Assembly (NCBI GenBank): GCA_039799085.1
Contig: JBDLTL010000002.1
Coordinates: 1 to 57,114 of the forward strand
DNA: 57,114 nucleotides
Origin: Candidatus Parcubacteria bacterium
GTDB taxonomy: Bacteria > Patescibacteriota > Minisyncoccia > Phycocordibacterales > UBA918
Direction: 5' to 3'
Positions 14,663-45,206 of the stretch are shown piece by piece. The notes below the pieces were generated by a model. The model did not search any database, was not told where the DNA came from, and saw only the letters and a program-made list of their open reading frames with translations. Position 1 is the first letter of the stretch; each line of letters starts with the position of its first letter. The position numbers and the translations under genes were made by a program.

Positions 14663-14763
14663 GTAGCGTCGATAATAACATATTTCTATATTAAATTAAA
14701 ACCGTGTTATATAATTTTAGAAATCTCACTTTAAGATAAAAAAGTAATTAAATTCTTGTAGCA

Positions 14764-16932: not shown

Positions 16933-17540
16933 GTCGAGTCCATTCTCCCAAAAGTCTAATTTTAGAAGGTGTTTCTGGCTCTGGAAAGACGACGATATAT
17001 CAAAATTTAGCCAGATACGCGATTGAGCATTCTATTAAATCAGAATTTGTTTCTGAGGAAAGAACTGTTTTAAAAATGTTGGATTCCACTGTACTTTCTG
17101 ACAATGTAGTGTATTTATTAAATTTGTTAGATATAACTTACTTAGATCAAAAGGATTTAACTGTTTTTGACAGGTTTCATTTTACACACACAATCAAAAC
17201 GAACGCAGGTCTTGATGATTTCAAAGAGGTTGAAGATATTCTTTTAGCCAAGGAGACGATTATTTTGTTTCTGCGCGTTTCTAAGAAGGAAATGTACGAT
17301 AGATTTAATAAAGCCTTAAAGTACAAATCAACAAAGTGGGTTAATTACATGAGGAAAGCTGGATTGGTTAGCACTGAAGATCTTGTGGAATATCATTTCG
17401 CACGCCAAAATTATTTCGAGAATTTATTAAACTCCACTCGATTGGAGCATTCTATTTTAGATGTCGCCGATTATAATTATATAGATTTGACTTACAAAAT
17501 TATTGATATTCTCCAGATAGAACCTGGTCAACTTTTGTGA
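16929..17540 (+). CDS. P-loop kinase-like protein (dNK/NMP-kinase fold)
   Basis: Walker A LILEGVSGSGKTT and a DRFHFTH segment. The start overlaps the upstream stop as ATGA. Confidence 0.55.
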   Translation: MSRVHSPKSLILEGVSGSGKTTIYQNLARYAIEHSIKSEFVSEERTVLKMLDSTVLSDNVVYLLNLLDITYLDQKDLTVFDRFHFTHTIKTNAGLDDFKEVEDILLAKETIILFLRVSKKEMYDRFNKALKYKSTKWVNYMRKAGLVSTEDLVEYHFARQNYFENLLNSTRLEHSILDVADYNYIDLTYKIIDILQIEPGQLL

Positions 17541-31125: not shown

Positions 31126-31332
31126 CTATTTTTTGCGGTTGTACGGCGACTGGTTAGTTGGTCGCAGACTTACGTCTAGCTGACTCGCTCTGGAGCGTAC
31201 CGCATCCTCGGTTCTTCCCAGTTTAAGGCCAATTACGCGCGTCGGTGTATTCTGTTTGGCTAGTTGACCAAGCTCACGCTCTTGCTTTGGTGTCCATGCT
31301 GTTCCAGAATTTCTGATGTAGTGTTTTGTCAT
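31126..31332 (-). CDS. Small basic protein with putative SANT/Myb-like helix-turn-helix
   Basis: MTKHYIRNSGTAWTPKQERELGQLAKQNTPTRVIGLKLGRTEDAVRSRASQL. It starts 4 nt after the upstream gene stop. Confidence 0.45.
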   Translation of the reverse strand: MTKHYIRNSGTAWTPKQERELGQLAKQNTPTRVIGLKLGRTEDAVRSRASQLDVSLRPTNQSPYNRKK

Positions 31333-31336
31333 ACGA

Positions 31337-31603
31337 TTAGTGATTATTGAGCCATTTGGCTGTGTTGGGCAGGTTGTAGGTTGCCCATACTTTAGTATTA
31401 ATGTTAATGACCAGAACCTTGTCATTTGAGTCAACGAGCTTCTGGAGGTCGTTTAGGATATCTTCTGCCGAGCGAGCTGACTGGATAAGATACACAGTCT
31501 GTAGGGGTTTCATCCTATCGGTGTATTTTTCCATGTAGTCGTACACGGGCTGGTAGTTTCTTCCTGGGCTAACCAGGTCGAAGCTGATCAGGTAGCTATT
31601 CAT
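31337..31603 (-). CDS. Hypothetical 88-aa protein (predicted beta-alpha-beta-beta-alpha-beta pattern)
   Basis: MNSYLISFDLVSPGRNYQPVYDYMEKY...DKVLVININ. First gene transcribed divergently from the XRE repressor gene. Confidence 0.5.
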   Translation of the reverse strand: MNSYLISFDLVSPGRNYQPVYDYMEKYTDRMKPLQTVYLIQSARSAEDILNDLQKLVDSNDKVLVININTKVWATYNLPNTAKWLNNH

Positions 31604-31696
31604 TGTTCTTGTTTTAGTTATACTGATAAGTGAATAATGGGTGAGCGGTAGCGAAGCGCTCCCAAATATGATACTCTCATCCAGTAACATGTAAAC

Positions 31697-31770
31697 GTAA
31701 CAAATTGTTACCAATGTAACTGTAAGTTACATAGATGTAATCCTAGATAACATTTGTAACGAATCGTTAC
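31697..31770. promoter_or_regulatory. Three GTAAC-N5-GTTAC palindromic operators in a divergent control region
   Basis: gtaacaaattgttac (31697-31711), gtaactgtaagttac (31716-31730) and gtaacgaatcgttac (31756-31770). Confidence 0.7.
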
Positions 31771-31795
31771 CTGTTGCCCACATCAATATCAACTT

Positions 31796-32161
31796 ATGCC
31801 CAAGAAGAAGGCTACACTAATAGATGAGCAGTCAAACGCTGAGGAAGCGGTGAAAAAATGCGTCGGCAAGAAAATCAGTGAGATGCGCAATCGCCTGAAC
31901 TTCAGTGCACTCACTGTGTCTGAACATCTAGGTATTTCCCGTGTGGCGGTGACCCAGATTGAGACTGGTAGAAACAACATCACTGCCGTCAGTCTCTGGA
32001 AATTGGCTACATTGTTTGGTTGTGAGGTTTCAGATTTTTTCCCTGATGTACCGGATGGATATGCGCTTACAAAAGTCGATATCCATAAGGTGGCTCAAGA
32101 AGACGAAAAGGCCGCAGTGTGGGCCGAAAAGATTTTCATAAAGAAAAAACATGATAAGTAG
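31796..32161 (+). CDS. XRE-family HTH transcriptional regulator (ImmR-like repressor)
   Basis: LNFSALTVSEHLGISRVAVTQIETGRNNITAVSLWKLATLFGCEV, a canonical XRE HTH. Confidence 0.85.
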   Translation: MPKKKATLIDEQSNAEEAVKKCVGKKISEMRNRLNFSALTVSEHLGISRVAVTQIETGRNNITAVSLWKLATLFGCEVSDFFPDVPDGYALTKVDIHKVAQEDEKAAVWAEKIFIKKKHDK

Positions 32162-32645
32162 AATTGAAAAAATAGCCGAGGACGTACTCACACATTTCAA
32201 ATTAGATGTGACTCCTGTTCCTGTAGAAGAGGTGGCGAGTCGTCTACAGATAAAAATCGGCAGAGAGCCTAGTGAAGATTTTTCTGGAATCCTTATACGT
32301 AAAGATGGTAAGGCGTTAATCGGTGTAAATAGTAATGAGTCTTTTGTTCGCCAACGATTTACAATTGCTCATGAATTAGGTCATTTTATTCTTCATAAGG
32401 AGAAGGAAACTTTTGTTGACTACCGTGATAATCAAAAGGAAATTATGAGAACACCTCGTGAGAAGCAGGCAAATGCTTTTGCCGCTGCTTTACTTATGCC
32501 TAGAACTAGACTTATTAAAGATGTAAAAGCTAAGTTTAAAGATGGTATATATGAAGAAGATCTTGTCGAGTTAGCAGAATTGTACGAAGTGAGTACAGAA
32601 GCAATGAAGTATAGACTAATGAATTTAAATTTGATTCACTCATAA
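32151..32645 (+). CDS. ImmA/IrrE family metallo-endopeptidase
   Basis: HELGHFILH zinc motif, overlaps the XRE gene end, and ANAFAAALLMP is typical of the family. Confidence 0.85.
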   Translation: MISRIEKIAEDVLTHFKLDVTPVPVEEVASRLQIKIGREPSEDFSGILIRKDGKALIGVNSNESFVRQRFTIAHELGHFILHKEKETFVDYRDNQKEIMRTPREKQANAFAAALLMPRTRLIKDVKAKFKDGIYEEDLVELAELYEVSTEAMKYRLMNLNLIHS

Positions 32646-32655
32646 ATTTCAGACT

Positions 32656-33072
32656 ATGGATTACAAGATTGAAGCAAAACCATTTGTCCATAAATCAGGA
32701 CAGAAGTATCTCACTTTAGAGATTACTGACATGGCTTTTCATTCTAGTAATCCGAGAGAGACCGTGAAGATCGGTAAAAAGATGGAAGAAGCAATTGCCG
32801 AGAAGCGGGCTGGACGTTTTTACAAACCCTTAACAAGTCCGCCTCCATTGGATCGTGCTTCGATTAGGCAATATATAATAGAACAACTTCAACAGAATGA
32901 AGATTTTGTACGTCTGGTTAAGGAGCAGGAGGAACAAGGTGTAAAAGTTCTCATCGCCATACCTGAAGACTATATTCCTGTCGGCCTAGGGGCTGATGCC
33001 GTTGAATTTATGAATAGTAAGAATGGTAAACGGTTAATAAGAGGGGTTGCAAAGGAAAAAAGAGAGGAATAG
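32656..33072 (+). CDS. Hypothetical protein (138 aa)
   Basis: Third gene of the XRE/ImmA operon. No family recognised. Confidence 0.55.
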   Translation: MDYKIEAKPFVHKSGQKYLTLEITDMAFHSSNPRETVKIGKKMEEAIAEKRAGRFYKPLTSPPPLDRASIRQYIIEQLQQNEDFVRLVKEQEEQGVKVLIAIPEDYIPVGLGADAVEFMNSKNGKRLIRGVAKEKREE

Positions 33073-33235
33073 AATTACAAGTACAACTTTGCGTAGTAAA
33101 AAGTAGAGTAGCGTATCGCCTTAGGCCATGCCTACTTCGCGCAAGAAATAAGTAGTCTTTCGACCAGCTTATTTCGTGTGTGGAGTAGGCATTTTCTATA
33201 TCCATACATTTTATTGAATTTAATTCACTAAAAGT

Positions 33236-34519
33236 ATGCAAAAGCTACAATGGGCAACTGTCCAGAAGAAAGTAGACGATCTTGTTCCGCAGGAAATTAA
33301 TCCTCGCAAGATCACCGACGCTCAGATGAAAGCTCTCACAGAGAGTCTGAAGAAGTTCAATCTAGTAGAGATACCAGCTATAGACGCAGATGGCACAATC
33401 CTTGCTGGTCACCAGCGTATTAAGGCACTTCAGCTCTTAGGTCGGGGTGAAGAATTAATCGACGTACGGGTACCAAACCGCAAACTCTCTGACAAAGAGT
33501 CTAAGCAATACCTCATAGGTTCAAACAAGCTCGGGGGCGACTGGAATTATGATCTCCTCAAAGCGTTCGATATGGACACTTTGTCTTTCGCTGGCTTTGA
33601 ATCAATGGAGCTAGCGAAGTTTTGGGACGAGGACAGCGCTACTAAAGAAGATGACTTCGACGTAGAAAAGGAACTAAAGAAAATCTTCACCCCTAAGACG
33701 AAACTCGGGGACGTTATTCATCTCGGGCGACATAAGCTTATTTGTGGCGACTCCACTAAACCAGAAACGCTTACTCGACTACTCGGCACTGAGCGAGCCT
33801 CGATGATCTACTCAGACCCTGTATATAACATTCAGGTGAACTATGACGGTGGAATCGGTGGTAAGAAAGAGTACGGCGGAAATGTAAATGACTCTCGTAC
33901 CTTTGAAGAATACCAGACGTTCATCAAGGATAGTCTCAGTGCCGCCCTTGCTGTATCAGAACCTAACACGCACGTCTTCTACTATTGCGACCAAATCTAT
34001 ATTGGACTGATTCAGGAGGTATATCGCTCACTGGGTATCGCAAATAAGCGAGTTTGTTTATGGCTTAAAAATTCGCAAAATCCCGTACCGAAAGTGTTTT
34101 GTAATAAGGCGTATGAGCCTGCTGTGTATGGTGTGCGAGGAAAGCCCTATCTAGCTGAGAGTATGCAGGATCTAAATGAAGTACTTAACAAAGAATTTAG
34201 TACAGGTAACGAGCTGATCACACAGGTTGATGATTTTATTGAAATATGGACCGCTAAGCGACTGTCTGCCAAAGACTACCAGCACGCCACCTCAAAACCA
34301 TTCACACTCCACGAAAAAGCGATTAAACGTTGTACCAAGCCAAATGACATTATCCTCGATAGTTTTCTTGGCTCTGGTAGTACGCTCCTAGCGGCTGAAC
34401 AGCTAGGACGACGAGTCTATGGTTGCGATTTAGAACCTCGGTTTTGCGACCTCATTATCAACCGCTTTGAAGCTATGACAGGCACCAAAGCAATCGTTGA
34501 ACGGTATGAAGAAAAGTAA
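33236..34519 (+). CDS. ParB-like nuclease domain fused to N4/N6 DNA methyltransferase
   Basis: N-terminal INPRKI...ILAGHQRIKAL (ParB/Srx motif). C-terminal SDPVYN (motif IV-like) and DSFLGSGST (motif I). Confidence 0.85.
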   Translation: MQKLQWATVQKKVDDLVPQEINPRKITDAQMKALTESLKKFNLVEIPAIDADGTILAGHQRIKALQLLGRGEELIDVRVPNRKLSDKESKQYLIGSNKLGGDWNYDLLKAFDMDTLSFAGFESMELAKFWDEDSATKEDDFDVEKELKKIFTPKTKLGDVIHLGRHKLICGDSTKPETLTRLLGTERASMIYSDPVYNIQVNYDGGIGGKKEYGGNVNDSRTFEEYQTFIKDSLSAALAVSEPNTHVFYYCDQIYIGLIQEVYRSLGIANKRVCLWLKNSQNPVPKVFCNKAYEPAVYGVRGKPYLAESMQDLNEVLNKEFSTGNELITQVDDFIEIWTAKRLSAKDYQHATSKPFTLHEKAIKRCTKPNDIILDSFLGSGSTLLAAEQLGRRVYGCDLEPRFCDLIINRFEAMTGTKAIVERYEEK

Positions 34520-34907
34520 GTCTGCTAAGCAGTTTCTTCTTGAACTGACTAAAGTACCGATTGTGCAGGTAGCGTGTGAGAAAGCTGGTCTGTCTCGTAA
34601 TACCGTCTATCGCTGGCGGAAGGAGGATAAGGAATTTGAGAAGAAAATGGATCAAGCCATCACTGATGGTGTGGCTTTAGTGAACGACATGAGCGAAAGC
34701 CAACTCCTCACCCTTATAAAAGAAAAGAACTTTCAAGCGGTACGATTTTGGCTCAATAAGCGCCACCCAGCCTACAAGGACAAGATTGAAGTAACAAGGG
34801 TAGGAACTATCGAAGAACTGACGCCCGAACAGGAAGTTACTGTGCGAAAGGCACTAGAAATGGCTCGCATTATTCCATCTAAAAAACATGATCATGATAA
34901 ACAATAA
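34506..34907 (+). CDS. Terminase small subunit-like HTH protein
   Basis: VACEKAGLSRNTVYRWRKEDKEFEKKMDQA HTH, located immediately upstream of the large terminase. Confidence 0.6.
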   Translation: MKKSKSAKQFLLELTKVPIVQVACEKAGLSRNTVYRWRKEDKEFEKKMDQAITDGVALVNDMSESQLLTLIKEKNFQAVRFWLNKRHPAYKDKIEVTRVGTIEELTPEQEVTVRKALEMARIIPSKKHDHDKQ

Positions 34908-36477
34908 CCCAATTTCAGAAGAACTATTTAACTCAATGAAGAAAGACCGTGTGGTACGGCAACAGATTATGAGTGGGAGCTTCAACTACTTCTTTCATTT
35001 CTACTTCGCTCACTACGTACAGTTTCCGACCGCTGCGTTCCAACGAGACCTTATCGGCAAGCTTGAGAATGAGCCTGACGAACACCTGTTTGTGGTGGCG
35101 TTTCGTGGGTCGGGCAAATCGACGATTGTAACGACAGCTTTTCCGATTTGGGCGATTCTCGGTAAACAAGAAAAGAAATTTGTTGTTATCTTTTGCCAGA
35201 CCCGAGTGCAAGCCAAACAGCACATGATGAATATTCGTAACGAACTAGAAAATAACCAATTACTCAAGAATGACCTCGGTCCCTTTAGTGAAGAGTCTGA
35301 CGAGTGGGGATCACATTCGATTGTGTTCTCAAACACTAAGTCTCGTATCACGGTCGCTTCGACTGAACAAAGTATTCGTGGACTTCGCCACCACCAACAT
35401 CGTCCAGATTTATTTATCTGTGATGACGTCGAGGACGTAGCCTCTACCAAAACCCGAGAGGGACGCAACAAGACCTATCAGTGGCTCACGGGTGATGTGA
35501 TACCAGCTGGTGACCAAGGCACACGACTCATAGTGATTGGTAACTTGCTCCATGAAGATTCTCTCCTCATGCGGTTGCGAGAGCGAGTCTTTAAGAAAGA
35601 ATTAGACGGAACCTTTATGTCTTGTGCAATTGCCGATGCTAAGGGAAAGTCTAATTGGCCAGGCAAATTCCCGAACGCTAAAGCTCTTGATAAAGAGCGA
35701 AAGAAAATCGGCGACGAAGTGGCATGGCAACGTGAGTATTTGCTTAATATTATTCCTGATGATGATCAGGTCATTCACCCTGATTGGATTCAGTACTATC
35801 ATGCCGACAAGTTGCCAGAAATTAATACGAAAGCCTATCGAGCGACGTATTCTGGCGTAGACTTGGCGATTTCAGTCAAAGACACGGCAGATTGTACGTC
35901 GATGGTATCGGCTCGGATTTATGGCAGGAACGAGAAACTCCGAGTTTTTATCATGCCTCAACCGTACAATCAGCGACTAACATTTCCGCAACAGGTGGAG
36001 TTGATGAAAGTCCACAAGAAGACTGTTCTTAATCGCAGTACCGATAAACTCATTATTGAAAGTGTTGGCTACCAAGACGCACTTGCTCAGATGCTTGACT
36101 CGCAAGGAGTCGATGCTGAGTCGGTAAAACCACATAACGATAAACGAACCCGACTGGCTCTTACGTCATCTATGATCCGCAATGGTACCGTTCTCTTCCC
36201 AGACAAGGGGTGCGAGCAGTTACTTCAGCAGATGATTGGGTTTGGTGTAGAAAAGCACGATGACTTAGCTGATGCATTCTCACTCCTTGTTCTCAAAATC
36301 GTTGAAGACTTTACTCATGAAAGTACTTTCCTCATGGCGTGGCTCGGTGACGGTGATATGGATGATAATGTCTTGTGGTACAACGACTACCGTGACGTTC
36401 TCCAAGACGTTGACTGCTTGCTTCCAAAAGCTAAAGAACAGATCGAGATAATTTTTACCAAGGATAGACGACGTTAA
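34888..36477 (+). CDS. Phage terminase large subunit
   Basis: Walker A VAFRGSGKST, Walker B LFICDDVED, and a C-terminal RNaseH-like nuclease region (GVDLA...DD..DA). Confidence 0.8.
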   Translation: MIMINNNPISEELFNSMKKDRVVRQQIMSGSFNYFFHFYFAHYVQFPTAAFQRDLIGKLENEPDEHLFVVAFRGSGKSTIVTTAFPIWAILGKQEKKFVVIFCQTRVQAKQHMMNIRNELENNQLLKNDLGPFSEESDEWGSHSIVFSNTKSRITVASTEQSIRGLRHHQHRPDLFICDDVEDVASTKTREGRNKTYQWLTGDVIPAGDQGTRLIVIGNLLHEDSLLMRLRERVFKKELDGTFMSCAIADAKGKSNWPGKFPNAKALDKERKKIGDEVAWQREYLLNIIPDDDQVIHPDWIQYYHADKLPEINTKAYRATYSGVDLAISVKDTADCTSMVSARIYGRNEKLRVFIMPQPYNQRLTFPQQVELMKVHKKTVLNRSTDKLIIESVGYQDALAQMLDSQGVDAESVKPHNDKRTRLALTSSMIRNGTVLFPDKGCEQLLQQMIGFGVEKHDDLADAFSLLVLKIVEDFTHESTFLMAWLGDGDMDDNVLWYNDYRDVLQDVDCLLPKAKEQIEIIFTKDRRR

Positions 36478-36503
36478 GCCAGTACCGAGTATGTGACGTT
36501 TTT

Positions 36504-36531
36504 CAAACCCTGCATAGCTATGCAGGGTTTG
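36504..36531. repeat. 28-bp perfect palindrome upstream of the serine recombinase gene
   Basis: caaaccctgcatag / ctatgcagggtttg. This could be a terminator hairpin for terL or a recombinase/regulator site. Confidence 0.7.
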
Positions 36532-36553
36532 TGGTTCTGTCATTAATTAACCT

Positions 36554-37831
36554 ATGACAGAGGTATTACAAAGCGACTATAAATACGTCCTATACGCACG
36601 TAAGTCGACCGAAGGCGATGAAAAACAAGCTCTTTCAATTGATTCACAGATTAAAGAAATGACTCAAATTGCTGAACGAGAGAAGCTCAATATTGTTGAG
36701 ATAAGACGAGAGTCTCACTCAGCTAAAGAATCAAGTCAGCGTCCTGTATTTGAGGAAATAGTACGAGATATCGATAACGGCATTTTTAATGCCGTTATCA
36801 CATGGGCTCCTGATAGACTTTCTCGTAATGCAGGCGACCTAGGCAAGCTTGTAGACCGAATGGACCAGAAGAAACTCATAACGATAAAGACTTTTGGACA
36901 AAACTTCACAAATTCACCAAGTGACAAGTTTCTCCTCATGATCTTGTGTTCGCAAGCCAAGCTCGAGAATGACAATAAAAGTATCAATGTGAAGCGTGGT
37001 ATGAGAACGAGGTGTGAGATGGGCTTGTGGCCAGCTCAGCCACCAACGGGGTACCGAAAAGTTGATGGGCGACTTGCAAAATGCGAGGTGGAAATTGATC
37101 CTGAAAGAGCTGATATTATACGGCAAGTCTTTGAAAAGATTGCCTATGAGAAATGGAGTGCTTCCAAGGTGCATGCGTGGCTTAAATACGATCTAAACTT
37201 CCGTACTTTACGTGGTTATCACTTAAGTATTGGGAATGTCTTCAAAATCATTAATAACACTTTCTACTATGGCAGATTTGAGTTCCCTCAAGGTTCTGGT
37301 ATCTGGTATGACGGCAAGCACACACCCCTTATAACCAAAGAGCTATTTGATGAGACCAGAAACTCAATCAAATCACAGGTCATAAAGTCACAAGGCAAGG
37401 AATTTGCCTTCACTCGAATGATGAAGTGTGGAGTTTGTGGATCGGGTATTACGGCTGACGAGAAATTCAAGAAACTCAAAGCTGGAGGAGTGAATCGTCA
37501 TGTCTACTATCGTTGTACCAAAGCAAAGGACAGAAGTTGCAAGAATCCAGCAATTAATGAGCCCGACTTAATTACAGCCATGACAAAAATGCTCGATACT
37601 ATCAGTCTTGATCAAGTGAAGCTAAACACCAAGCTGAATGCTGAAATTCAGAAGTTTAAGAAGCTTCAGGCGATGTTTCTAGGAAAGAAGAAGACTGAAA
37701 AGATCGAATCAATTGATGTGCGTGATTATGCAAGATTTGTACTCACTGAAGGAAGCGTACTTGAGCAGAGGTCTGTATTGGAGTGTATTAGCAGTGAATT
37801 GATTTTAAAAAATTCAATTATAAAAATTTAG
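36554..37831 (+). CDS. Large serine recombinase (integrase)
   Basis: Resolvase catalytic N-terminus YARKSTEGDEKQALSIDSQ, a recombinase domain, and a zinc ribbon CGVCGS...YYRC. Confidence 0.9.
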   Translation: MTEVLQSDYKYVLYARKSTEGDEKQALSIDSQIKEMTQIAEREKLNIVEIRRESHSAKESSQRPVFEEIVRDIDNGIFNAVITWAPDRLSRNAGDLGKLVDRMDQKKLITIKTFGQNFTNSPSDKFLLMILCSQAKLENDNKSINVKRGMRTRCEMGLWPAQPPTGYRKVDGRLAKCEVEIDPERADIIRQVFEKIAYEKWSASKVHAWLKYDLNFRTLRGYHLSIGNVFKIINNTFYYGRFEFPQGSGIWYDGKHTPLITKELFDETRNSIKSQVIKSQGKEFAFTRMMKCGVCGSGITADEKFKKLKAGGVNRHVYYRCTKAKDRSCKNPAINEPDLITAMTKMLDTISLDQVKLNTKLNAEIQKFKKLQAMFLGKKKTEKIESIDVRDYARFVLTEGSVLEQRSVLECISSELILKNSIIKI

Positions 37832-38817
37832 GTTTTCTTTTGGTAGTATTTATCCAGTTCCTTGAATATTTCAGGACTGTAATACATTTTTTTATTTTTC
37901 TTTGTGTCTAAATCTAGATACCTTGGTCTAGCATATTTGTAACCACCTATAGACTCAAGTGTCCTTTTTATGGCATGAAATTTTGGATTTGGCTTGAAAT
38001 CAATGTACCTCTCTTTACATGTTTCTTGTAACTTTTTAAAGGACAGTGGATATTTTGTCTGGAAAACATTGTCTTCTTCAACCTTTACCGGTACAGCTTT
38101 TGGATCGTCAGTATATCTAACTGACATAGCGGAGGTTGAATTACTCTTGACGAATTTAGTTTCGAGAGCCAGTCCAATATTGTGTGTCTTGCTTTCGTCC
38201 GATGGATATTTCTTTTCTTTCCGTTTAATAAAAGAGAGAATATTTTTAATCTGGATTGGAATTTTATTAAGTGAGTGACTTTCGAATTCAAATGGATGAA
38301 AGAAAGAAAGTGGCATCAAATAAAAATTGTATCTGCTCAGATCTTCTTCAAACCAGTCACGATTTATTGCTACGTAACTTCTAAGAGTTGCTGTACCAAT
38401 TTCCAACACCTTTTTACTAAATGATTTATCATCATTTGTGAAATGTACTGCGTTATCTCTGATCTCTACAAGCAACTCAATATTTTCTCGTAAGATTTTA
38501 TCCGGATTTGTTTTATCAAGTGCGGTATATATATCTATGGTTTGAGGATTGCCGCTTCGGTTAGTTGCTGGAAAAAATCTTTTCAGTACTTTGTTATCTT
38601 TAGTTCTTGTTTTCCCAGGTTTATAAATTGATTTTAGTACATTCTTGTTATCTTTTAATACTTTTGCTTTAAGAAGAAGTTCCCATGCATTTACCATTAA
38701 GATCGCAAAAGTTTCTTCACGATAATGGAAATCTGGTTTGTTGTATATTTCAATTGCTGAGACGGCAGCGGCAAGTGACTTATCAAGGAGATTCTTGTAT
38801 TTTTGTCGCTTTGCCAT
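37828..38817 (-). CDS. Uncharacterised 329-aa protein, last gene of the Type III R-M operon (N-terminus reminiscent of DUF3644; recalled, unverified)
   Basis: N-terminal AAAVSAIEIYNKPDFHYREETFAILMVNAWELLLKAK. It starts 6 nt after the res stop and overlaps the recombinase gene stop by 4 nt. Confidence 0.6.
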   Translation of the reverse strand: MAKRQKYKNLLDKSLAAAVSAIEIYNKPDFHYREETFAILMVNAWELLLKAKVLKDNKNVLKSIYKPGKTRTKDNKVLKRFFPATNRSGNPQTIDIYTALDKTNPDKILRENIELLVEIRDNAVHFTNDDKSFSKKVLEIGTATLRSYVAINRDWFEEDLSRYNFYLMPLSFFHPFEFESHSLNKIPIQIKNILSFIKRKEKKYPSDESKTHNIGLALETKFVKSNSTSAMSVRYTDDPKAVPVKVEEDNVFQTKYPLSFKKLQETCKERYIDFKPNPKFHAIKRTLESIGGYKYARPRYLDLDTKKNKKMYYSPEIFKELDKYYQKKT

Positions 38818-38822
38818 ATTTT

Positions 38823-41738
38823 TTAGAACAATTTACCTCCGGCCATAGCTTCACTAACTTTTGCCAGCTCGCAAATCTCACTTATTGAAGCATTATTACT
38901 CTTAAGACTATAGAAGTTATTTTCACCAAGTAACACGTATGACCACTCTCTACTCATTCTTTCTTCTGGTGGTAGTGAATTAGTTCGCTTCACCCAATCA
39001 ATTGTAGCAAGTTGTTTTTGCTTAACATTTTGATCATTCAGATCTTTGTCTGCTTTTGTTTCAACCAAGTAGATTTTATCTGTCGTCTTTATAATAAAAT
39101 CAGGAGAATACAAAGAAAGAAGACCGTCTGCACGAATGTATGAGATTGTTGCGAATGAGTGATAATACTCATTTACTTTAATAAGAGATTCAACATTTGA
39201 ATCTGAGTCTGCGTATTCCAGCAGGTTTTTTTCGAACTCACCTTTGTTAGACGGGTACGGTAAACGTTCGTATATAGTTTTTGCAATCTCTAGGGAGTAA
39301 TTTTCACGCATTCGAAGCTCTGTAACTTCGGAAAAATATCTCTTTTCAACTTTTGCCTCCGTAGGTTGAATTGACTGTTGCATGCTGAAAATAGCTTTAC
39401 CAATTTCCTTAACAATATGGTCTGTAATTAGACCGTTTTTAAGTAGCAGTACCTTCCAATTATTGTCTGCAAAAGGGTTAAAGTTGTCACCAAACAATCT
39501 GCTTCGAACATAACGATCTACTGTGCCAGCAATAGCTACCGTGTTTACTTGGAGAGACGGAAATACTTTATTCTTTCTCTGACTAATTCGATCAAGACGA
39601 TTTACAACGACTGAGACAATCTTTTGGAGGTATTCGTTGTAGCTTTGTGACTTAAACAATGCGCCATCTACTACATATTCTCCAAAACGTGTCTTTACTG
39701 TCATTTCTTCGGATACGAATTTTTCACCATCGGCAGCAAAAAACTTCCTCAGCTCTTCAAGAGGATACAATGTAAAAGGTTCAAGTGAAGTAACATCAAT
39801 TTCAGTCTCAACTAGTTCCTCATCAGCATCACGTACTATAAATGGCCAGAACAAGTCGTATTGAGGATAGTTTTCTCGTAGACCAACTTTGATAATGTCA
39901 CCTAGCACACCTTTACTGTCTTGAGGATCATCTCCAATCTCACCAAGTAATCCTTCTTTAAGGAGATCTTCATAGAATTGAATGAAGGCTGGGTGTTCAA
40001 TAATTGTTAAGATATCAAGATAGTTACTTGGCTCTCGTTTTTCCGAAAGAAGACGCCTACGATTATCTGCTTTGATTTCTAAAAACTCCGGCTCACGCCA
40101 CATCAAGCGAAGCCCTCGACCAATTGTTTGTTCAAGCAATATTGGGGCGGAAGAGGAGCGCAAAGGTACAACTACACAAATGTTACTTACATCAAAGCCT
40201 TCACGGAGCATAAGTACAGAAACAATAACTTTTGGATGTTCATGTTTGTCTACGTTGAAGAGTTTTTGCTTAACCTCTTTCCACTCATCTTCAGGAAGCT
40301 CTCCTTTACGGTTTGAATCAATACGCATTACATCATCATCTGAGAGACCCTCTGTTTTGAGAAAATCTTCAATAAATGGTGTCACTGTCGTATCTTCACA
40401 CATCACAAGCATCTTAGGATGTTTATTTGAAGCACCATTCTTATCCGCGGTAAAAGAGGTGAAGTGCTCCTCTAAAATACGGAGCTTGTTGAGTCCTGCA
40501 CGGAGCATCATTTTTTGTCCCTCTGACAACCCAACAACCACAGCATTTTCTCGGATAGCATTGTATTCAAGAGGTAAATCAACAAGCTCCTTTCTTTTAT
40601 CAATGACTATTGTCTTTACTAGACCACCACGGATTGCTGTCTTAAGATCAAAATCAACAATAACGTGTGGGAAATAGTGTTTTACTCGATTTTGCCCACT
40701 ACCAGTTACCTCGTACGGAGTTGCAGAAATGTCAATTTGAATAAAGCTAGATCCCTTTGAATGCGAGATAGCATTAAGACTCTTTTGCCACTCTACTTCT
40801 TTAATTTCACCATATGATTTGTTTTCATGAATGTGGTGAGCCTCATCATTCATTACCATTAAATCTGGAAGGTCTTTAAGAAATTCGATTTCCTTACCAC
40901 TTTGGTACTGCGAGTCGAGTGTGTCTAGACTATTTCCACCAGAAGTTCCTGGACGAACAGGAAAAACATCTCGAATAACACCGCCTATGTCATCCATGGG
41001 CGCACTGTCTTCAGTTATATCCTCATCAGTGATAAAGAGGTGCCAGTTTGCGATGGCAATTATTCCATCTCCAGTCACTTTTGTTCCGATTTCTTGTTTG
41101 CGAGCTACTGAGTTTTGTATAAAACCAAATATGTCATCCCGATAGCTTGGTGGTATGAAGGTCTCTCTAAATAAATATAGATCAGAGGTCTCAAAGTCAC
41201 GGTCACCAGCTGGTTTTTCTTTACCAAGATAAGCATCAAGGAGTCGCTCATACACGATGAGACCCGGGGCAACAAGAAGAAAGTTTTTTGTAAATTTACC
41301 AGTCTTTTGTTCCTCATATCGTGCGTTTAGGTATTGCCATACCAGTAATGCGTGCATGACCCACGTCTTACCAGTACCAGTTGCCATCTTTATGGCGTAT
41401 TTTGGTATCTCGTATTTCGACTTCTTGAACTCAGTCATGTCCATTTCAGACATGAGTTCAAATTCAGTAGTTTCGTATATCTCTCGTACTGACTTCACTC
41501 CGATTACTTCATGGAGATAGACCGTATTCAAGATAGCTTGTCGCTGACCTTCATGAAAGTTTGCATATCGTGTTTCAGTATGAGGAGAGGTAAACCAAAA
41601 TGTTAGTAAATCACGAGTTACAGGAGTGACTTTAGAGAGCAATTCACTATTTGCCCATGACTCATTTACCTTGTCCGTGAGTGAGCGTGCTAGCTTAAGT
41701 GGTATGTCACGTGTACCAATGTTTATTGGAGTTGCCAT
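38823..41738 (-). CDS. res: Type III restriction endonuclease Res subunit (SF2 helicase plus PD-(D/E)xK nuclease)
   Basis: MATGTGKTW (motif I), MNDEAHH (DEAH), ISATP (III), and C-terminal SPDFIIKT...YLVETKADKD nuclease motif. Confidence 0.85.
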   Translation of the reverse strand: MATPINIGTRDIPLKLARSLTDKVNESWANSELLSKVTPVTRDLLTFWFTSPHTETRYANFHEGQRQAILNTVYLHEVIGVKSVREIYETTEFELMSEMDMTEFKKSKYEIPKYAIKMATGTGKTWVMHALLVWQYLNARYEEQKTGKFTKNFLLVAPGLIVYERLLDAYLGKEKPAGDRDFETSDLYLFRETFIPPSYRDDIFGFIQNSVARKQEIGTKVTGDGIIAIANWHLFITDEDITEDSAPMDDIGGVIRDVFPVRPGTSGGNSLDTLDSQYQSGKEIEFLKDLPDLMVMNDEAHHIHENKSYGEIKEVEWQKSLNAISHSKGSSFIQIDISATPYEVTGSGQNRVKHYFPHVIVDFDLKTAIRGGLVKTIVIDKRKELVDLPLEYNAIRENAVVVGLSEGQKMMLRAGLNKLRILEEHFTSFTADKNGASNKHPKMLVMCEDTTVTPFIEDFLKTEGLSDDDVMRIDSNRKGELPEDEWKEVKQKLFNVDKHEHPKVIVSVLMLREGFDVSNICVVVPLRSSSAPILLEQTIGRGLRLMWREPEFLEIKADNRRRLLSEKREPSNYLDILTIIEHPAFIQFYEDLLKEGLLGEIGDDPQDSKGVLGDIIKVGLRENYPQYDLFWPFIVRDADEELVETEIDVTSLEPFTLYPLEELRKFFAADGEKFVSEEMTVKTRFGEYVVDGALFKSQSYNEYLQKIVSVVVNRLDRISQRKNKVFPSLQVNTVAIAGTVDRYVRSRLFGDNFNPFADNNWKVLLLKNGLITDHIVKEIGKAIFSMQQSIQPTEAKVEKRYFSEVTELRMRENYSLEIAKTIYERLPYPSNKGEFEKNLLEYADSDSNVESLIKVNEYYHSFATISYIRADGLLSLYSPDFIIKTTDKIYLVETKADKDLNDQNVKQKQLATIDWVKRTNSLPPEERMSREWSYVLLGENNFYSLKSNNASISEICELAKVSEAMAGGKLF

Positions 41739-41740
41739 AT

Positions 41741-43612
41741 CTATACTTTCTTAATTACGACACTTTCAAACCCAAATACATCAACTGCCTTAACGCATAC
41801 CGTACGGTCTTCTTTTTTCGGAACGAGAAAATCCACCTCATAAAGAACTCTCATAGAGTCTCCATCTTTTTCAGTATTTCCACGGTAATCTTGCCAGCGA
41901 CTTCGGAAAGTTACTCCGTCGTAGTCAGGATCAATGCTCCAATACTCAATGAGTGCCAATGAGTCTTCCGCAAGGATGTCTGATAGCTTTTCTTTATCCT
42001 TCTCATCAAGTGGCAAAATGTCTGCAGATAGAAGGGCGTAATAATCCAACGCAACTTTAATTCGTTCATCATCTCCATGATCACCTTCAGTTTTTTCAAT
42101 AGATTTTAGTACGAGATATTGAGGAGTAGAGAATCGAATTTTGCCACTATCGATAAGCTTTTTGTAACTAGCTTTTGTTTTAAGACGATCAATAAGGTCT
42201 GGAGGTATTACTGCCACATCGAGATTCTCATCATCAAGAGAACCCTTAGCATCTACAATGTCATGTGAAAAGTTCCAGCCAAGCACTACCACTTTTCGCC
42301 AACCACCCATGAATGTATTTCGTAATTCCTGTGCTTTCTTGAGTGTTGAAAGACCAGTTACTTTATTTGGCGAATCAACGTACACGAGTGTTTTTGATTC
42401 CTTGATGTATCCAAGATTTCGTTGACTTGATTCAGAGTCAGGGAAAGGAATCGCACCATATAGTTGCATTACCACTTGTGACAAGTCACCGATACGTTTA
42501 AATAACTTACTTCCAGCAATTGCTTCTTTTTGATAGTCACCGACTGATTGGTATAGAAAAGGTTTTGCATTTTGATCTATAAGTCGTTTTCGTGTGACCA
42601 TGCAAGCAGGTTTACCAAGATCGGACATTATCCATTTACGTCCAAGTCTTTCAGCAACAGCTCCAGTTGTACCCGAGCCCATAAAAAAGTCTGCCACAAC
42701 ACCACCTTCAGGGCATGATGAATCAATGATCCTTTGAAGTAACTTCTCGGGCTTCTGGGTATTATAGTTTACGAGTTCATTTCTAGACTTTACGTGACCT
42801 ATGGTCCATACATCATCAGATAATTTTGTATCACTCTTTAAATACTCCGCTTTATCACTATTGAATCCTGCAGCGTACTTGCTTCTATTTATCGTGCCCT
42901 CAGCATATTTCTCTCGAACGTACTCTGAACCGGAATTAAAATAAAAATTGTTTGCATTCTTTGCGTATCGGAATATGTTGTCATGTTTTCGTGGGAAAAA
43001 CGATTGCGTTACAGACATCGAGGGATAATGCCATATGATTTCGTTGATGAAATTTTCCTTGCCAAAAATTTCATCCAACAAAATTTTTGCATAATGTCCG
43101 ACATGCCAATCAATATGTACATATATTGATCCAGTGTCAGAAAGTAACTCTTTCATCAATGCAAGACGAGGATATAACATTTTAAGATAGGAAACAGTAC
43201 CGTCTTTCCATGTGTCTGAATATGCGAATTGTTCAATTACTGTTGGCTTTTGTTCAAGATCAGCGCCTGGAAGTACCACCTTTGAACGATAATCAGCTTT
43301 TGAGTCGAATGGAGGATCGATATAGATGAGATCAATCTTACCTCGCATTGAAGGCAGGCCAGTGGCAGGATCGCCAGCGAGGAGTGATTGCATCACTAAA
43401 AGATTGTCACCATAGACGAGTCGGTTCATCCAATCTGAAAATTGCGGAACCTCACCCATGAACATTCCTGCCGTTTCTTTTGACGGAAGTACCAGCTCGT
43501 TTGTCTGCAGACCAAGCTTGTTTGTGCTTGAGAGTCGCTCAAGTATCTCCTCAACTTCTTTTCGTCCATCTGCGACAATCTTTGGAAGTTCTTCTATCAA
43601 TGATTTTTTCAT
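41741..43612 (-). CDS. mod: Type III Mod DNA methyltransferase (beta-class N6-adenine)
   Basis: [10 protein letters not shown] (motif IV) followed by [21 protein letters not shown] (motif I). It ends 3 nt upstream of res. Confidence 0.85.
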
Positions 43613-43614
43613 AT

Positions 43615-43821
43615 TTATTTCAAAAGCTCGGCGGCTGTGACCCCAAGTACTTTGGCTAAGCTGGTAATTGTTGAAAGAGTAGGGTTTGTCTTGCCGTTCT
43701 CAATGTTGCTCACGAACGATTTATCTACACCAATTAGCTCGGCTAGCTGACTCTGGGTAATATTCTTATTAGCACGAAGCGTTTTAAGATTAGTACCCAG
43801 TTTTTTTGACTCCTCTTGCAT
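43615..43821 (-). CDS. XRE-family HTH protein, probable R-M controller (C) protein
   Basis: 68 aa with [32 protein letters not shown]. Its stop lies 3 nt before the mod start. Confidence 0.75.
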
Positions 43822-43868
43822 AGACAGAGTCTACCACAGTTAGTTGTATTAAACTACAACTTGTCTAC
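43821..43868. promoter_or_regulatory. Nested palindromes at the C-gene start (candidate C-boxes/operator)
   Basis: tagac-aga-gtcta (43821-43833), gttgta-ttaaac-tacaac (43843-43860) and gtctac (43863-43868). Confidence 0.45.
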
Positions 43869-43892
43869 ATGGTTTACCTCAGAAAAAAGTTG

Positions 43893-43898
43893 TATAAT
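43893..43898 (+). promoter_or_regulatory. -10 box (TATAAT) for the retron-like non-coding transcript
   Basis: A consensus TATAAT preceded by TG. It is followed within 4-8 nt by the a1 repeat. Confidence 0.5.
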
Positions 43899-43901
43899 TT
43901 C

Positions 43902-44095
43902 ATTGCTTACAAATAGAGCCACCTTTGTTTTTGTCTTTTAATCAAAAAGACTTCAGGGTAAAGACAGTAAGACCTGTTAATGCGTAACTGATGAGCTCCG
44001 CTCGACAGGTACGCACCACCAGTTAGTACCACCTTTGCTTTGTCCCTTGAGAGGTAGGTAGTCGAATACCAACAATAACAAAATTTGTAAGTAAT
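43902..44095 (+). ncRNA. Candidate retron msr-msd non-coding RNA
   Basis: a1 attgcttacaaat (43902-43914) pairs with a2 atttgtaagtaat (44083-44095), giving 13 bp with one G-U. AGAGC follows a1 directly. There is an internal 7-bp hairpin at 43933-43951, no credible ORF, and the region lies 5-prime of the RT gene. Confidence 0.45.
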
Positions 44096-44206
44096 CTGAG
44101 GTGGCCCCGTTATTGTCCACTTCAAAATAGTCACTATGGAATTAATTATTTCATTGTTGCTTATTTGGCTTATCGCAAGAGAAACCAAATAGGGACTAAG
44201 ACCTTA

Positions 44207-45088
44207 ATGGATAAAGTAGATATTTTTGCATCGAAACAATCCTTACTAAATCTCCTAGGCATTAGAGACAATTTTTTATATTCTGACTTTGCAAGTAAGT
44301 ATTCCGAAAGGGATTTTCCCAAAAAGAATGGTGGTGTAAGAAAAATTAAGCCACCAGCAAAACGCCTCAAAACTCTTCAAAGAGAGATTCTCGATAAAAT
44401 ATTAGTACATACAGATCAACTGGATTGCGTGTACGGCCTTTCAAAAGCAAGAGATTTAAAAGCAAACGCTTTATTACACATAAAAAGTTCTGATCACTTT
44501 TTATTAAATCTTGATATAGAAAACTTTTTTCCTAGTTTAAGTCGAAAAAGAGTTCTTAATCTATTTCGACAAATTGGCTTTTCAAAAGAAAATGCAACTA
44601 TACTCACAAAGTTTAGTACTGTTGATAATTCATTACCTCAAGGCGCTCCTACTAGCCCTTATTTAGCGTCTCTAGCCTGTCAGAAAATGGACAGAAAACT
44701 ATATAACTACTGTCGTAGGAGAAACCTAATTTATTCAAGGTACTTTGATGATATTAGTATTTCAGGGGAGGTTGTTACTGAATCCAATGTTCAGGATATT
44801 AAGAATATGATCTCTGATTCTGGACTGACTTGTAATGAACAGAAAACTCATTTGTACTCATCTCTTGATAAGGAAAAGATAATTAATGGGGTCTTGATCA
44901 AGTCAGGAGCACTGTCTGTTCCAGAGCCTTACAAATCAGAGATAGAAGCCTGCTACAAGAAATATGTTTCTGAAAAGACTCTACAGTTGCAGAGAATATA
45001 TAAAGGTAAGATTGGTTTTTACATTTATATCAACAGAAAAGAAGCTCTTCTATTTGAAAAGGGTCTTAAAAATAAATACGGTGTTTAG
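44207..45088 (+). CDS. Retron-type reverse transcriptase
   Basis: GGVRKIKPPAKRLKTLQREI (RT1), VYGLSKARDLKANALLH (the NAxxH signature), LNLDIENFFPS (RT3), LPQGAPTSPYLAS (RT4), YSRYFDDISISG (RT5) and IINGVLIKSG at the VTG position. ATG 44207 is preferred over TTG 44165. Confidence 0.8.
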   Translation: MDKVDIFASKQSLLNLLGIRDNFLYSDFASKYSERDFPKKNGGVRKIKPPAKRLKTLQREILDKILVHTDQLDCVYGLSKARDLKANALLHIKSSDHFLLNLDIENFFPSLSRKRVLNLFRQIGFSKENATILTKFSTVDNSLPQGAPTSPYLASLACQKMDRKLYNYCRRRNLIYSRYFDDISISGEVVTESNVQDIKNMISDSGLTCNEQKTHLYSSLDKEKIINGVLIKSGALSVPEPYKSEIEACYKKYVSEKTLQLQRIYKGKIGFYIYINRKEALLFEKGLKNKYGV

Positions 45089-45131
45089 GTTTGATTTGAG
45101 CCTTCTCGAGTGCTCGAACCTGCTCTCTCTT

Positions 45132-45206
45132 TGGTGATCCTACGGAGAATCGAACTCCGATTTCCAGGATGAAAACCTGGCGTCCTGACCGTTAGACGAT
45201 AGGACC
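45132..45206 (-). tRNA. tRNA-Glu (anticodon TTC), CCA encoded
   Basis: Manual cloverleaf: GGTCCTA TC GTCT AACGGTCA GGAC G CCAGG TTTTCAT CCTGG AAAT CGGAG TTCGATT CTCCG TAGGATC A CCA. Confidence 0.9.

Follow-up and report, generated by a model that had tools for sequence, protein, structure and literature searches.

Is the fourth gene of a Type III restriction-modification (R-M) operon a part of the enzyme, or is it a defense gene of its own that travels with the operon? This question is raised by a locus in a 57,114-nt stretch of DNA from a Candidatus Parcubacteria bacterium (GenBank assembly GCA_039799085.1, contig JBDLTL010000002.1, positions 1 to 57,114; here called the window), in which four co-oriented minus-strand open reading frames (ORFs) encode, in order, a helix-turn-helix (HTH) protein, the methyltransferase Mod, the restriction protein Res, and a 329-amino-acid (aa) protein, hereafter the fourth protein. 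An earlier note, written from the sequence alone, had taken the last gene for an uncharacterized accessory that would turn the operon into an atypical four-component Type III system. We found that the gene is a member of a HEPN family that is already catalogued and is carried in R-M operons of all types, and the locus does not represent a new kind of system. Most likely, the gene is a portable module that is independent of the R-M type and not a Type III subunit. We propose, with a probability of about 0.62, that the fourth protein is a self-contained HEPN-type defense effector, lodged last in a controller-headed Type III mod-res operon and acting independently as a second layer. The locus is a clean natural example of a defense gene embedded in another defense system: the gene for a HEPN protein that is predicted to cut RNA closely follows Type III R-M genes, behind a controller-type regulator.

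Family, conserved motif, and predicted fold

The fourth protein scored 168.8 bits on the Pfam model PF12358 (DUF3644), whose cut-off is 27.6, with residues 9-203 aligned to model positions 1-182 of 183, which bears out the DUF3644-like N terminus that the earlier note had suggested. The conserved-looking 32-residue N-terminal peptide that it had singled out lies at residues 21-52, and the C-terminal half that it had called basic is mildly so (26 K plus R versus 17 D plus E in 124 residues). In the PADLOC scan that it had proposed, the protein matched the PDC-S19 model PDLC04954 over its full length (3e-116), its residues 4-328 aligning with positions 3-328 of the 330 in the model, and eight more PDC-S19 models matched as well, down to 1.6e-6. 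A search of 5.8 billion clustered proteins returned 3,818 homologues at E <= 1e-3. The best 120 are 320 to 348 aa long at 98 to 100% query coverage; therefore, the whole architecture is conserved and the gene is no fragment. At 329 aa, the protein sits inside the family range, which disposes of the idea that it might be a piece of an unrelated mobile gene. The description "uncharacterized" no longer applies at the level of the family, given that the full-length family is PDC-S19, that DUF3644-bearing proteins defend, and that DUF3644 was placed in the HEPN superfamily in 2013, where it is described as overlapping the EC042_2821 family and as found in R-M operons (Anantharaman et al. 2013, PMC3710099). 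Our literature search for PDC-S19 itself found no experimental test.

All of the 35 homologues that were aligned carry R120 and H125 (RDNAVH), so that a conserved Rx4-6H motif is present; E23, Y25, N26, K27, P28, N43, W45, and E46 are also invariant. The AlphaFold2 model of the fourth protein had a mean predicted local distance difference test (pLDDT) score of 80.1. When residues 1-160 were compared with 48,161 chains via VIA-align, solved HEPN domains came out on top, with Z scores of 10.5 to 8.8 and a root-mean-square deviation (rmsd) of 2.9 to 3.9 over 115 to 122 aligned residues. The best match was 2hsb (Z 10.5, rmsd 3.0, 119 residues aligned), followed by 1ufb (9.5), 4nqf (9.4), 5yep, which is SO_3166 (9.2), 1wol (9.1), 8xdj (8.9), and the sacsin HEPN domain (8.9), while Csm6, AbiV, and HepS ranked lower. 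Foldseek analysis of the full model against the PDB gave nothing at E <= 1e-3; HepT and SO_3166, both HEPN toxins, headed its weak rows. We accepted the HEPN assignment because the modeled four-helix up-and-down fold, the Rx4H motif, and the published assignment agree. The cutting of RNA by this protein is a prediction.

Less conserved is the C-terminal part, where the majority-residue fraction is 0.55 (residues 206-329) versus 0.71 in residues 1-205. Residues 246-329 folded alone, from 46 sequences, reached a pLDDT of 77. The structural matches of this domain were weak, the best being an excisionase at Z 4.4 and, in Foldseek, LmrR/PadR at E 0.86, and Foldseek of the C-terminal model against the PDB again gave nothing at E <= 1e-3. 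Many of the weak rows were winged-helix, excisionase, or MerR-like DNA binders, none of them significant, and a search of the ESM Atlas with residues 205-329, DUF3644 clusters excluded, yielded no usable match and no Atlas model. The modeled domain may be a winged helix, which we regard as a lead only. We looked for a conserved (D/E)xK in the C-terminal part and found none, the ETK at residues 219-221 being variable among the 35 homologues. The sole cysteine is C267. No ATPase or other known partner-binding module was detected in Pfam or NCBIfam, and the HEPN domain comes first in the protein. A homodimer prediction scored 0.16 against a mark of 0.42, a value that is not evidence either way.

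Genomic neighborhoods of homologues

A census of neighboring genes, as the earlier note had suggested, was made from at least 600 matched stretches, 511 of them encoding relatives, of which the best 80 loci were taken. ORFs were called with a simple greedy caller. The center gene was found in 78 of the 80 loci (none in L042 and L044), was misassigned in L043 and L058, and was split or short in L007 and L029; L077 had no neighbors. The 272 genes lying within two positions on either side in 77 loci were compared with Pfam at E <= 1e-8. We counted as R-M domains HsdM/S/R, N6_N4_Mtase, ResIII together with RE_endonuc or Eco57I, Type_ISP_C, the EcoRI methylase, C5 methylases, named restriction endonucleases (REases), McrBC, and GmrSD, and left out DUF1156 (L057), a lone HNH (L037), TIR, RhuM, AAA_21/RloB, PIN, and Fic. 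The control genes were the nearest genes of at least 100 aa located at least 6 kb away on each side (91 proteins from 61 loci).

R-M domains were present in 46 of the 272 neighboring genes versus 1 of the 91 control genes (Fisher p = 1.6e-5), confirming that the homologues are associated with R-M genes. At least one R-M neighbor was found in 30 of the 77 loci, and these neighbors belong to all major types (Table 1); L044, picked up via tblastn, brings the Type III cases to seven. The R-M gene is immediately adjacent on the same strand, with a gap of at most 60 nt, in 20 of the 30 R-M-linked loci. The R-M genes lie on both sides of the DUF3644 gene in 4 loci, upstream only in 20, and downstream only in 6. 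The closest homologue with a usable context, at 70% identity (L085), is part of a Type I operon with the order HsdS, PIN_12 protein, DUF3644, HsdR. The family behaves as a module that enters R-M operons of any type, which speaks for an effector acting independently as a second layer and makes a subunit specific to Type III less likely. The proposal of an atypical four-component Type III system is not supported by this result, since the same family adjoins Type I, ISP/IIG, II, III, and IV genes, and a specificity or regulatory partner of the Type III enzyme is unlikely for the same reason. What does stand from the earlier note is the gene as an intact, conserved, defense-linked functional accessory, and the evidence points toward the abortive-infection or sensor module that it had offered as one possibility.

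The layout of the window is repeated in L003 (HTH-Mod-Res-DUF3644), and L002 has the order HTH, EcoRI-type methylase, GmrSD/HNH, DUF3644. Among the Type III loci, the DUF3644 gene comes after res in the window and L003, after mod in L010, L054, and L029, and between the two in L045 and L044. In L011 (L011:7640-16325), a large serine recombinase adjoins DUF3644-HTH-Res-Mod, which are the parts of the window in another order; this suggests that such cassettes travel on serine-recombinase elements.

Several further observations concern the surroundings of these homologues. Two distinct predicted RNase-type genes (PIN_12 and DUF3644 HEPN) adjoin between hsdS and hsdR of the Type I operon in L085:991-7447. 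A DUF488 protein (~295 aa) and an unannotated protein of ~270 aa adjoin the DUF3644 gene in five Bacteroidota loci, upstream of it in L012, L013, and L018 and downstream in L008 and L021 (the DUF488 member only in L008), and this pair may be another embedded module. In several Bacteroidota loci of the Type I- and ISP-associated kinds, the stop codon of the DUF3644 gene is immediately followed by a conserved noncoding element of ~120-170 nt, which recurs after other embedded defense genes of the same loci. The element has no tRNA or Rfam match, is absent from the window, and could be a cassette boundary mark, a shared terminator, or a 3' element. Small ORFs over the DUF3644 stop codon were considered as a partner gene and rejected: 6 of 14 (L005, L007, L009, L016, L019, and L020) are the translated noncoding element.

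The operon and its Type III-like enzyme

All four minus-strand genes reported in the earlier note were found at the coordinates that it gave, and their lengths and strong profile matches identify them as genuine genes, not chance frames. The stop-to-start gaps are 2 nt between the HTH gene and mod, 2 nt between mod and res, and 5 nt between res and the DUF3644 gene; two of the three gaps had thus been reported correctly, and the first, given as 3 nt, was a one-base slip without consequence. With such spacing, the genes are probably co-transcribed and translationally coupled.

The Mod and Res motifs named in the earlier note were all located in the translations. Mod carries DPPF (motif IV) at residue 99, ahead of FMGSG (motif I, FxGxG) at residue 310, and matched the PADLOC MTase_III model PDLC03633 over nearly its full length (2.1e-81, residues 53-620). 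Its gene lies directly upstream of res on the same strand, which is the Type III order. In Res, GTGKT is found at residue 121, DEAH at 298, and PD...ETK at 879-895; the Pfam matches were ResIII (1.3e-12), Helicase_C (2.3e-5), and a weak TnsA-like nuclease (2.6e-4). The match of Res to the PADLOC REase_III model was partial (1.1e-24, residues 283-548 only), and the best NCBIfam match, the BPTD_3080-family restriction endonuclease (1.5e-59, 201.9 bits), fell below its cut-off of 800. Res scored 25.3 bits on the curated Type III Res equivalog PRK15483, whose cut-off is 564, and is no member of it; a phmmer search against PDB sequences gave 0 matches. By these profile comparisons, Res is divergent, and we filed it as Type III-like. 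We found no simple-sequence repeats of the phase-variation type in mod or res.

The controller-like protein and its upstream region

A controller (C) protein had been suspected in the first gene, and the HTH protein fits this role by its size, its position, and its similarity to C.AhdI and C.BclI, both of which are among the top 5 of its 41 PDB sequence matches (E 1.2e-7 each). It is of the small XRE type, co-oriented with and directly upstream of the R-M genes, as in the C-protein layout, and we call it controller-like on this basis. The PADLOC Control_protein model matched at 2.1e-12, with the retron HTH_VI (6.1e-16) and capH (1.3e-13) models scoring better; HipB-type models matched as well or better, and the protein also resembles the HipB, HigA, and PezA antitoxins. 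Two inverted repeats precede the gene, TAGAC-N3-GTCTA, which abuts the ATG, and AGTTGTA-N6-TACAACT. We consider them operator-like, which is suggestive only: the chance of a 7-bp perfect repeat in 80 bp is ~5% by a rough estimate. Neither a Shine-Dalgarno sequence before the ATG nor a consensus promoter in the upstream region was found.

Given that HTH_VI was the top PADLOC match of the HTH protein, we considered that it might be the accessory protein of a Type VI retron, in which the HTH protein is described as 91 to 110 aa long and is accompanied by a small effector of 75 to 79 aa (PMC7736814). This was rejected because the HTH protein has only 68 aa. Its gene is coupled to mod by 2 nt and not to a reverse transcriptase (RT) gene, no small effector ORF was seen in 43822-45131 besides a 93-aa antisense ORF, and HTH-first R-M operons occur with no RT in view in L003 and L002. 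The HTH and HEPN proteins as a toxin-antitoxin pair were likewise rejected, as no HTH regularly neighbors the DUF3644 family: an HTH_3 protein lies within two genes of the DUF3644 gene in 1 of the 77 loci (L011), and relatives of the window's HTH protein were found via tblastn in 4 of the 80 loci.

Retron, island, and distribution

Divergent from the operon is a retron-type RT gene. The RT matched the PADLOC models RT_III-A (3.3e-65), RT_II-A (3.1e-61), and RT_VI (3.1e-58) and, below its cut-off, the retron St85 family (1.1e-52); NALLH is found at residue 101 and YFDD at residue 193. The predicted fold of 43895-44170 has an energy of -72.7 kcal/mol (z = -3.94, with 0 of 200 shuffles as good), and the modeled structure upstream of the RT gene fits a retron noncoding RNA (ncRNA). 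The spacer between the HTH and RT genes had nothing at the Rfam gathering threshold and only chance-level snoRNA rows at E <= 10. No recognized effector adjoins the RT gene, because the tRNA-Glu gene directly follows it. Of 401 genomes in the phylum, 8 encode RT relatives at E <= 1e-10, and the host's own is one of these. Among the 80 loci, an RT lies near the DUF3644 gene in one, and that RT is of the group II intron type; therefore, a general link between retrons and DUF3644 is not supported. The 93-aa ORF at 43907-44188 on the minus strand, antisense to the candidate ncRNA, is unsupported and probably spurious.

A prophage-like island carries the cassette as cargo at its end, where a serine integrase lies on one side and tRNA-Glu on the other. 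At ~30-45 kb, the GC content of the window is 0.35-0.45 versus ~0.48 in the flanks. A second low-GC stretch at 14000-19000 (0.33-0.40 versus ~0.47 in its flanks) may be another island. The genes at 31126-37831 resemble a prophage or satellite remnant, with an XRE regulator, an ImmA-like metalloprotease, a ParB-methyltransferase fusion, and terminases, then the serine integrase; no capsid or tail genes were seen among them. A search for att-like direct repeats found none.

The distribution of the DUF3644 gene and its operon is patchy and mobile. The host genome (864 kb in 40 contigs, 98% complete, with relatives in the phylum at 0.5-2 Mb) has one copy of the DUF3644 gene, PF12358 scores above its cut-off in 9 genomes (counting that of the host) out of 401 from the phylum, and the DNA of the operon was found in 0 of the 12 same-genus genomes that were searched. 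Four other DNA runs carry fragments of the island, which are identical in X3 and X5 and 3-8% diverged in X4 and X6; the 24 runs listed included no RNA run. One X4 contig (record 15) bridges Mod-HTH-spacer-RT, and one X6 contig (record 30) bridges Mod-HTH; both runs have a 16-nt insertion after position 44041, inside the candidate ncRNA. Among the contigs listed from the four runs, none bridges the Res/DUF3644 junction, and the DUF3644 gene is partly uncovered in some, from which we draw nothing. A joint from 37284 to 45131 in X4 was discounted given that its shorter side has only 26 letters.

Table 1. Features of the window and of the homologous loci
Feature	Position or loci	Strand	Basis
ParB-like/DNA methyltransferase fusion, small terminase-like protein, large terminase	33236..36477	+	PHROGs phrog_498 2.6e-84, phrog_4044 5.4e-11, phrog_38 9.3e-76
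Large serine recombinase/integrase, convergent with the DUF3644 gene, 4-nt overlap	36554..37831	+	Resolvase, Recombinase, Zn_ribbon_recom; phrog_95 1.8e-62
DUF3644/HEPN protein (PADLOC candidate PDC-S19), last cistron, 329 aa	37828..38817	-	PF12358 1.2e-49
C-terminal domain, residues 246-329, predicted helix-helix-helix-strand-strand-helix	37831..38082	-	Predicted models
Codons for R120-D-N-A-V-H125, HEPN Rx4H motif	38443..38460	-	Alignment of 35 homologues
Type III-like Res, superfamily 2 (SF2) helicase plus C-terminal PD-(D/E)xK motif, 971 aa	38823..41738	-	ResIII 1.3e-12
Type III Mod, beta-class N6/N4 DNA methyltransferase, 623 aa	41741..43612	-	N6_N4_Mtase 4.7e-45
XRE-family HTH, C-protein-like first cistron, 68 aa	43615..43821	-	HTH_3 6.5e-19
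Operator-like inverted repeat TAGAC-N3-GTCTA, abutting the HTH ATG	43822-43834	-	Read from the sequence
Operator-like inverted repeat AGTTGTA-N6-TACAACT	43842-43861	-	Read from the sequence
Candidate retron ncRNA (msr-msd)	43902..44095	+	13-nt closing stem, 43902-43914 with 44083-44095
Retron-type RT, 307 aa, divergent from the operon	44165..45088	+	RVT_1 2.9e-21
tRNA-Glu(UUC), right edge of the low-GC island	45132..45206	-	ARAGORN, Rfam, GC profile
Type I neighbors (11 loci)	L005, L006, L007, L009, L014, L017, L021, L022, L036, L041, L051		
ISP/IIG-like neighbors (7 loci)	L016, L019, L020, L023, L031, L050, L063		
Type III-like neighbors (6 loci)	L003, L010, L011, L029, L045, L054		
Type II neighbors (3 loci)	L002, L047, L059		
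Methyltransferase-only neighbors (2 loci)	L065, L079		
McrBC neighbor (1 locus)	L039		
Conserved noncoding element	L005:6832-6985, L007:6244-6411, L009:2769-2938, L006:1480-1609, L016/L019:10997-11166		
Conserved noncoding element, further loci	L020:10997-11131, L023:10997-11114, L018:2747-2833		
Conserved noncoding element, also	L008:6959-7028, L021:8822-8954 and 16407-16566		

Discussion

We propose that the fourth protein acts next to the R-M enzyme and not as a part of it. A phage or plasmid cue would be sensed, probably via the variable C-terminal domain, whereupon the HEPN site would cut RNA and bring about growth arrest or loss of the invader. Embedding would provide cotransfer and coregulation with the R-M system and would not make a four-subunit enzyme. 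The DUF3644/PDC-S19 family is abundant and travels with every major R-M type. The locus is a convenient test case, given its compact operon, the obvious catalytic residues R120 and H125, and the related loci with the same gene order, and it could show whether HEPN genes embedded in this way work by themselves, serve as guards of the R-M system, or are directed at plasmids. In addition, the locus documents a controller-like HTH that precedes a Type III system, together with a retron, a rare element in this phylum of small genomes.

Several points weigh against this proposal. For the PDC-S19 subfamily, RNase activity is predicted, its target and trigger are putative, and PDC-S19 itself is a candidate. 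Helical bundles can reach Z scores of 8-10, as seen for the HEPN matches, through their arrangement alone, and neither Foldseek nor a profile search of PDB sequences (0 at E <= 10) gave a significant match; for the C-terminal domain, the suggested fold and role are tentative. Co-transcription of the operon is read from gaps of 2 to 5 nt only, and the independence of the fourth protein from Mod and Res at this locus is inferred from the census of homologues. The Fisher p of 1.6e-5 in that census overstates independence, as the loci are interrelated (L016, L019, L020, and L023 share one architecture). With no R-M domain within two genes in 47 of the 77 loci, the link is frequent, not obligate; many of the 47 are short contigs or carry more distant homologues. 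Their contexts include housekeeping genes, prophage (L072), and insertion sequence (IS) elements; therefore, the DUF3644 gene also stands alone. The HTH-methylase-nuclease-DUF3644 order kept in L003 and L002 could also reflect functional coupling.

We considered that the HEPN protein might instead be a guard of the kind known from PrrC, held latent on the R-M complex and unleashed on tRNA or mRNA when a phage anti-restriction protein disables the complex, which would make it an anti-anti-restriction backup. For PrrC itself, the latency is due to EcoprrI, and T4 Stp is the activator. Tight same-strand placement in 20 of the 30 R-M-linked loci, with the gene lying between R-M genes in 4, would suit a guard, as would the description of the PrrC/RloC HEPN families as common in R-M operons (PMC3710099). 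However, the partners are as unrelated as Type I HsdM/S/R, single-chain ISP, Type II, Type III, and McrBC proteins; therefore, a conserved protein-protein interface is hard to picture. More than half of the loci (47 of 77) also have no R-M domain within two genes, and the fourth protein has no ATPase or known partner-binding module. We thus regard a guard as unlikely, even though mere coregulation with the R-M system and guarding by it both fit the data.

An anti-plasmid factor resembling Ishtar would target incoming plasmids or replicons (e.g., their replication RNA primers), not phage, and would complement the DNA barrier set by the R-M system. The predicted model of the fourth protein, a DUF3644 HEPN domain and then three helices with short strands, resembles the description of Ishtar, and the homologue of L060, from Acinetobacter (43% identity), has housekeeping-type genes on either side, as described for ist2. 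This likeness to Ist1/Ist2 is taken from a verbal description, however, and HEC-08, the other tested DUF3644 protein, is described as anti-phage, so that we find this function distinctly improbable. A long shot of a different kind is that DUF3644 HEPN proteins are guards that do not discriminate between R-M types and are triggered once the restriction system beside them is disabled, and that, at this locus, a single HTH protein coregulates the R-M genes, the HEPN effector, and a retron that consists of RT and ncRNA and has no effector, as one compact mobile cassette on a prophage-like island of a 0.86-Mb genome; the operator-like palindromes of the HTH protein are located within 80 bp that also serve as the upstream region of the divergent retron. 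In a bolder variant of this idea, the HEPN protein would be the missing retron effector, by analogy with type IX retrons.

The proposal that the fourth protein is an obligate component of this Type III enzyme, be it a specificity, regulatory, or sensor subunit, draws on the 5-nt gap after res on the same strand, with a presumed shared transcript, on the recurrence of the HTH-Mod-Res-DUF3644 order in L003, and on Type III-like genes near the DUF3644 gene in L010, L011, L029, L045, L054, and L044. Type III-like loci make up 6 of the 30 R-M-linked loci, however, with 24 of other types, the 70%-identical homologue sits in a Type I operon, and the position of the gene varies among the Type III loci (after res, after mod, or between them), and we consider such a role very unlikely. 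Finally, an HTH-repressed HEPN addiction toxin that kills cells losing the island, thereby serving the mobile element over host defense, would suit a cassette that adjoins the integrase and is carried by a prophage-like island. Such a toxin would also agree with the best structural matches, which include HEPN toxins from toxin-antitoxin pairs (5yep, 7ae2, and 8xdj), and with the likeness of the XRE HTH to HipB, HigA, and PezA, but it is highly improbable given that neighbors vary with no conserved antitoxin partner (HTH_3 within two genes in 1 of 77 loci, relatives of the window's HTH in 4 of 80) and that the downstream small ORFs in some loci are the translated conserved noncoding element.

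Relation to described defense proteins

The independent second-layer effector that we favor can be set beside several described families. The nearest is PDC-S19, to which the fourth protein belongs by its full-length match; its gene lies in or against an R-M operon, which is how the PDCs were defined. The genes from which the PDC models were seeded are described as lying within BREX, DISARM, or Type I R-M systems (10.1101/2024.01.29.577857), whereas the operon here is Type III with an HTH gene in front. Preprint supplementary tables may already list the PDC-S19 family or tie it to Ishtar or HEC-08.

HEC-08 (Hma-embedded candidate 8), a DUF3644 HEPN protein, is reported to protect against phage, and mutation of the histidine of its Rx4-6H motif abolishes defense (10.1101/2024.01.29.577857). 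Like the fourth protein, it has an N-terminal DUF3644 HEPN domain with this motif, its essential histidine being H128 versus H125 here, and both match SO_3166 (5yep) structurally. Unlike HEC-08, the fourth protein lacks zinc fingers, because it has only one cysteine, and it has a different, ~85-residue helix/strand C-terminal domain. No HEC-08 model matched it in the PADLOC scan, whose library may or may not include one.

The two Ishtar proteins (Ist1/Ist2, Acinetobacter baumannii) are described as monogenic; each begins with a HEPN domain, which is DUF4145 in one protein and DUF3644 in its counterpart, and ends with a domain of unassigned function that has 5-7 strands and 3 helices; their genes are often near defense genes, and they cause the rapid loss of plasmid RP4 (10.64898/2026.07.06.735840). 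Here, too, an N-terminal HEPN domain is followed by C-terminal strands and three helices, and the gene is patchily distributed near defense genes. By the verbal description used for this comparison, the Ishtar genes stand alone, not in an operon with R-M genes, and their tested activity is directed against RP4.

The EC042_2821 family shares the Pfam domain, the Rx4-6H motif, and the occurrence in R-M operons. Its prototype is described as having a C-terminal REase-fold domain of ~180 aa, and some members as having an N-terminal winged HTH or a Zn ribbon, whereas in the subfamily of the fourth protein the C-terminal part is shorter and lacks a conserved (D/E)xK.

For the first gene of the operon, the comparison is with C proteins, which are described as widespread in Type II systems; in a Type I system of Mycoplasma gallisepticum, the C gene precedes hsdM, S, and R and acts as a repressor of the entire operon (PMC12707154). 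The small XRE HTH protein as the first gene and the co-orientation with the R-M genes are as in C proteins, and the operator-like palindromes before its own start may be so as well, but the classical ones control Type II systems, usually the REase gene. The portions of the review available mention no case of C-protein control of a Type III system (PMC12707154).

For the operon as a whole, PrrC, RloC, and ApeA offer the most plausible working analogy, in which the fourth protein would be an RNA-level backup to a DNA-level barrier. They are HEPN proteins with an Rx4-6H motif, PrrC and RloC being described as families common in R-M operons and ApeA as similarly embedded (PMC3710099). PrrC and RloC have an N-terminal ABC ATPase and belong to other HEPN families, in contrast to the fourth protein, in which Pfam and NCBIfam detect no ATPase domain and which begins with the HEPN domain.

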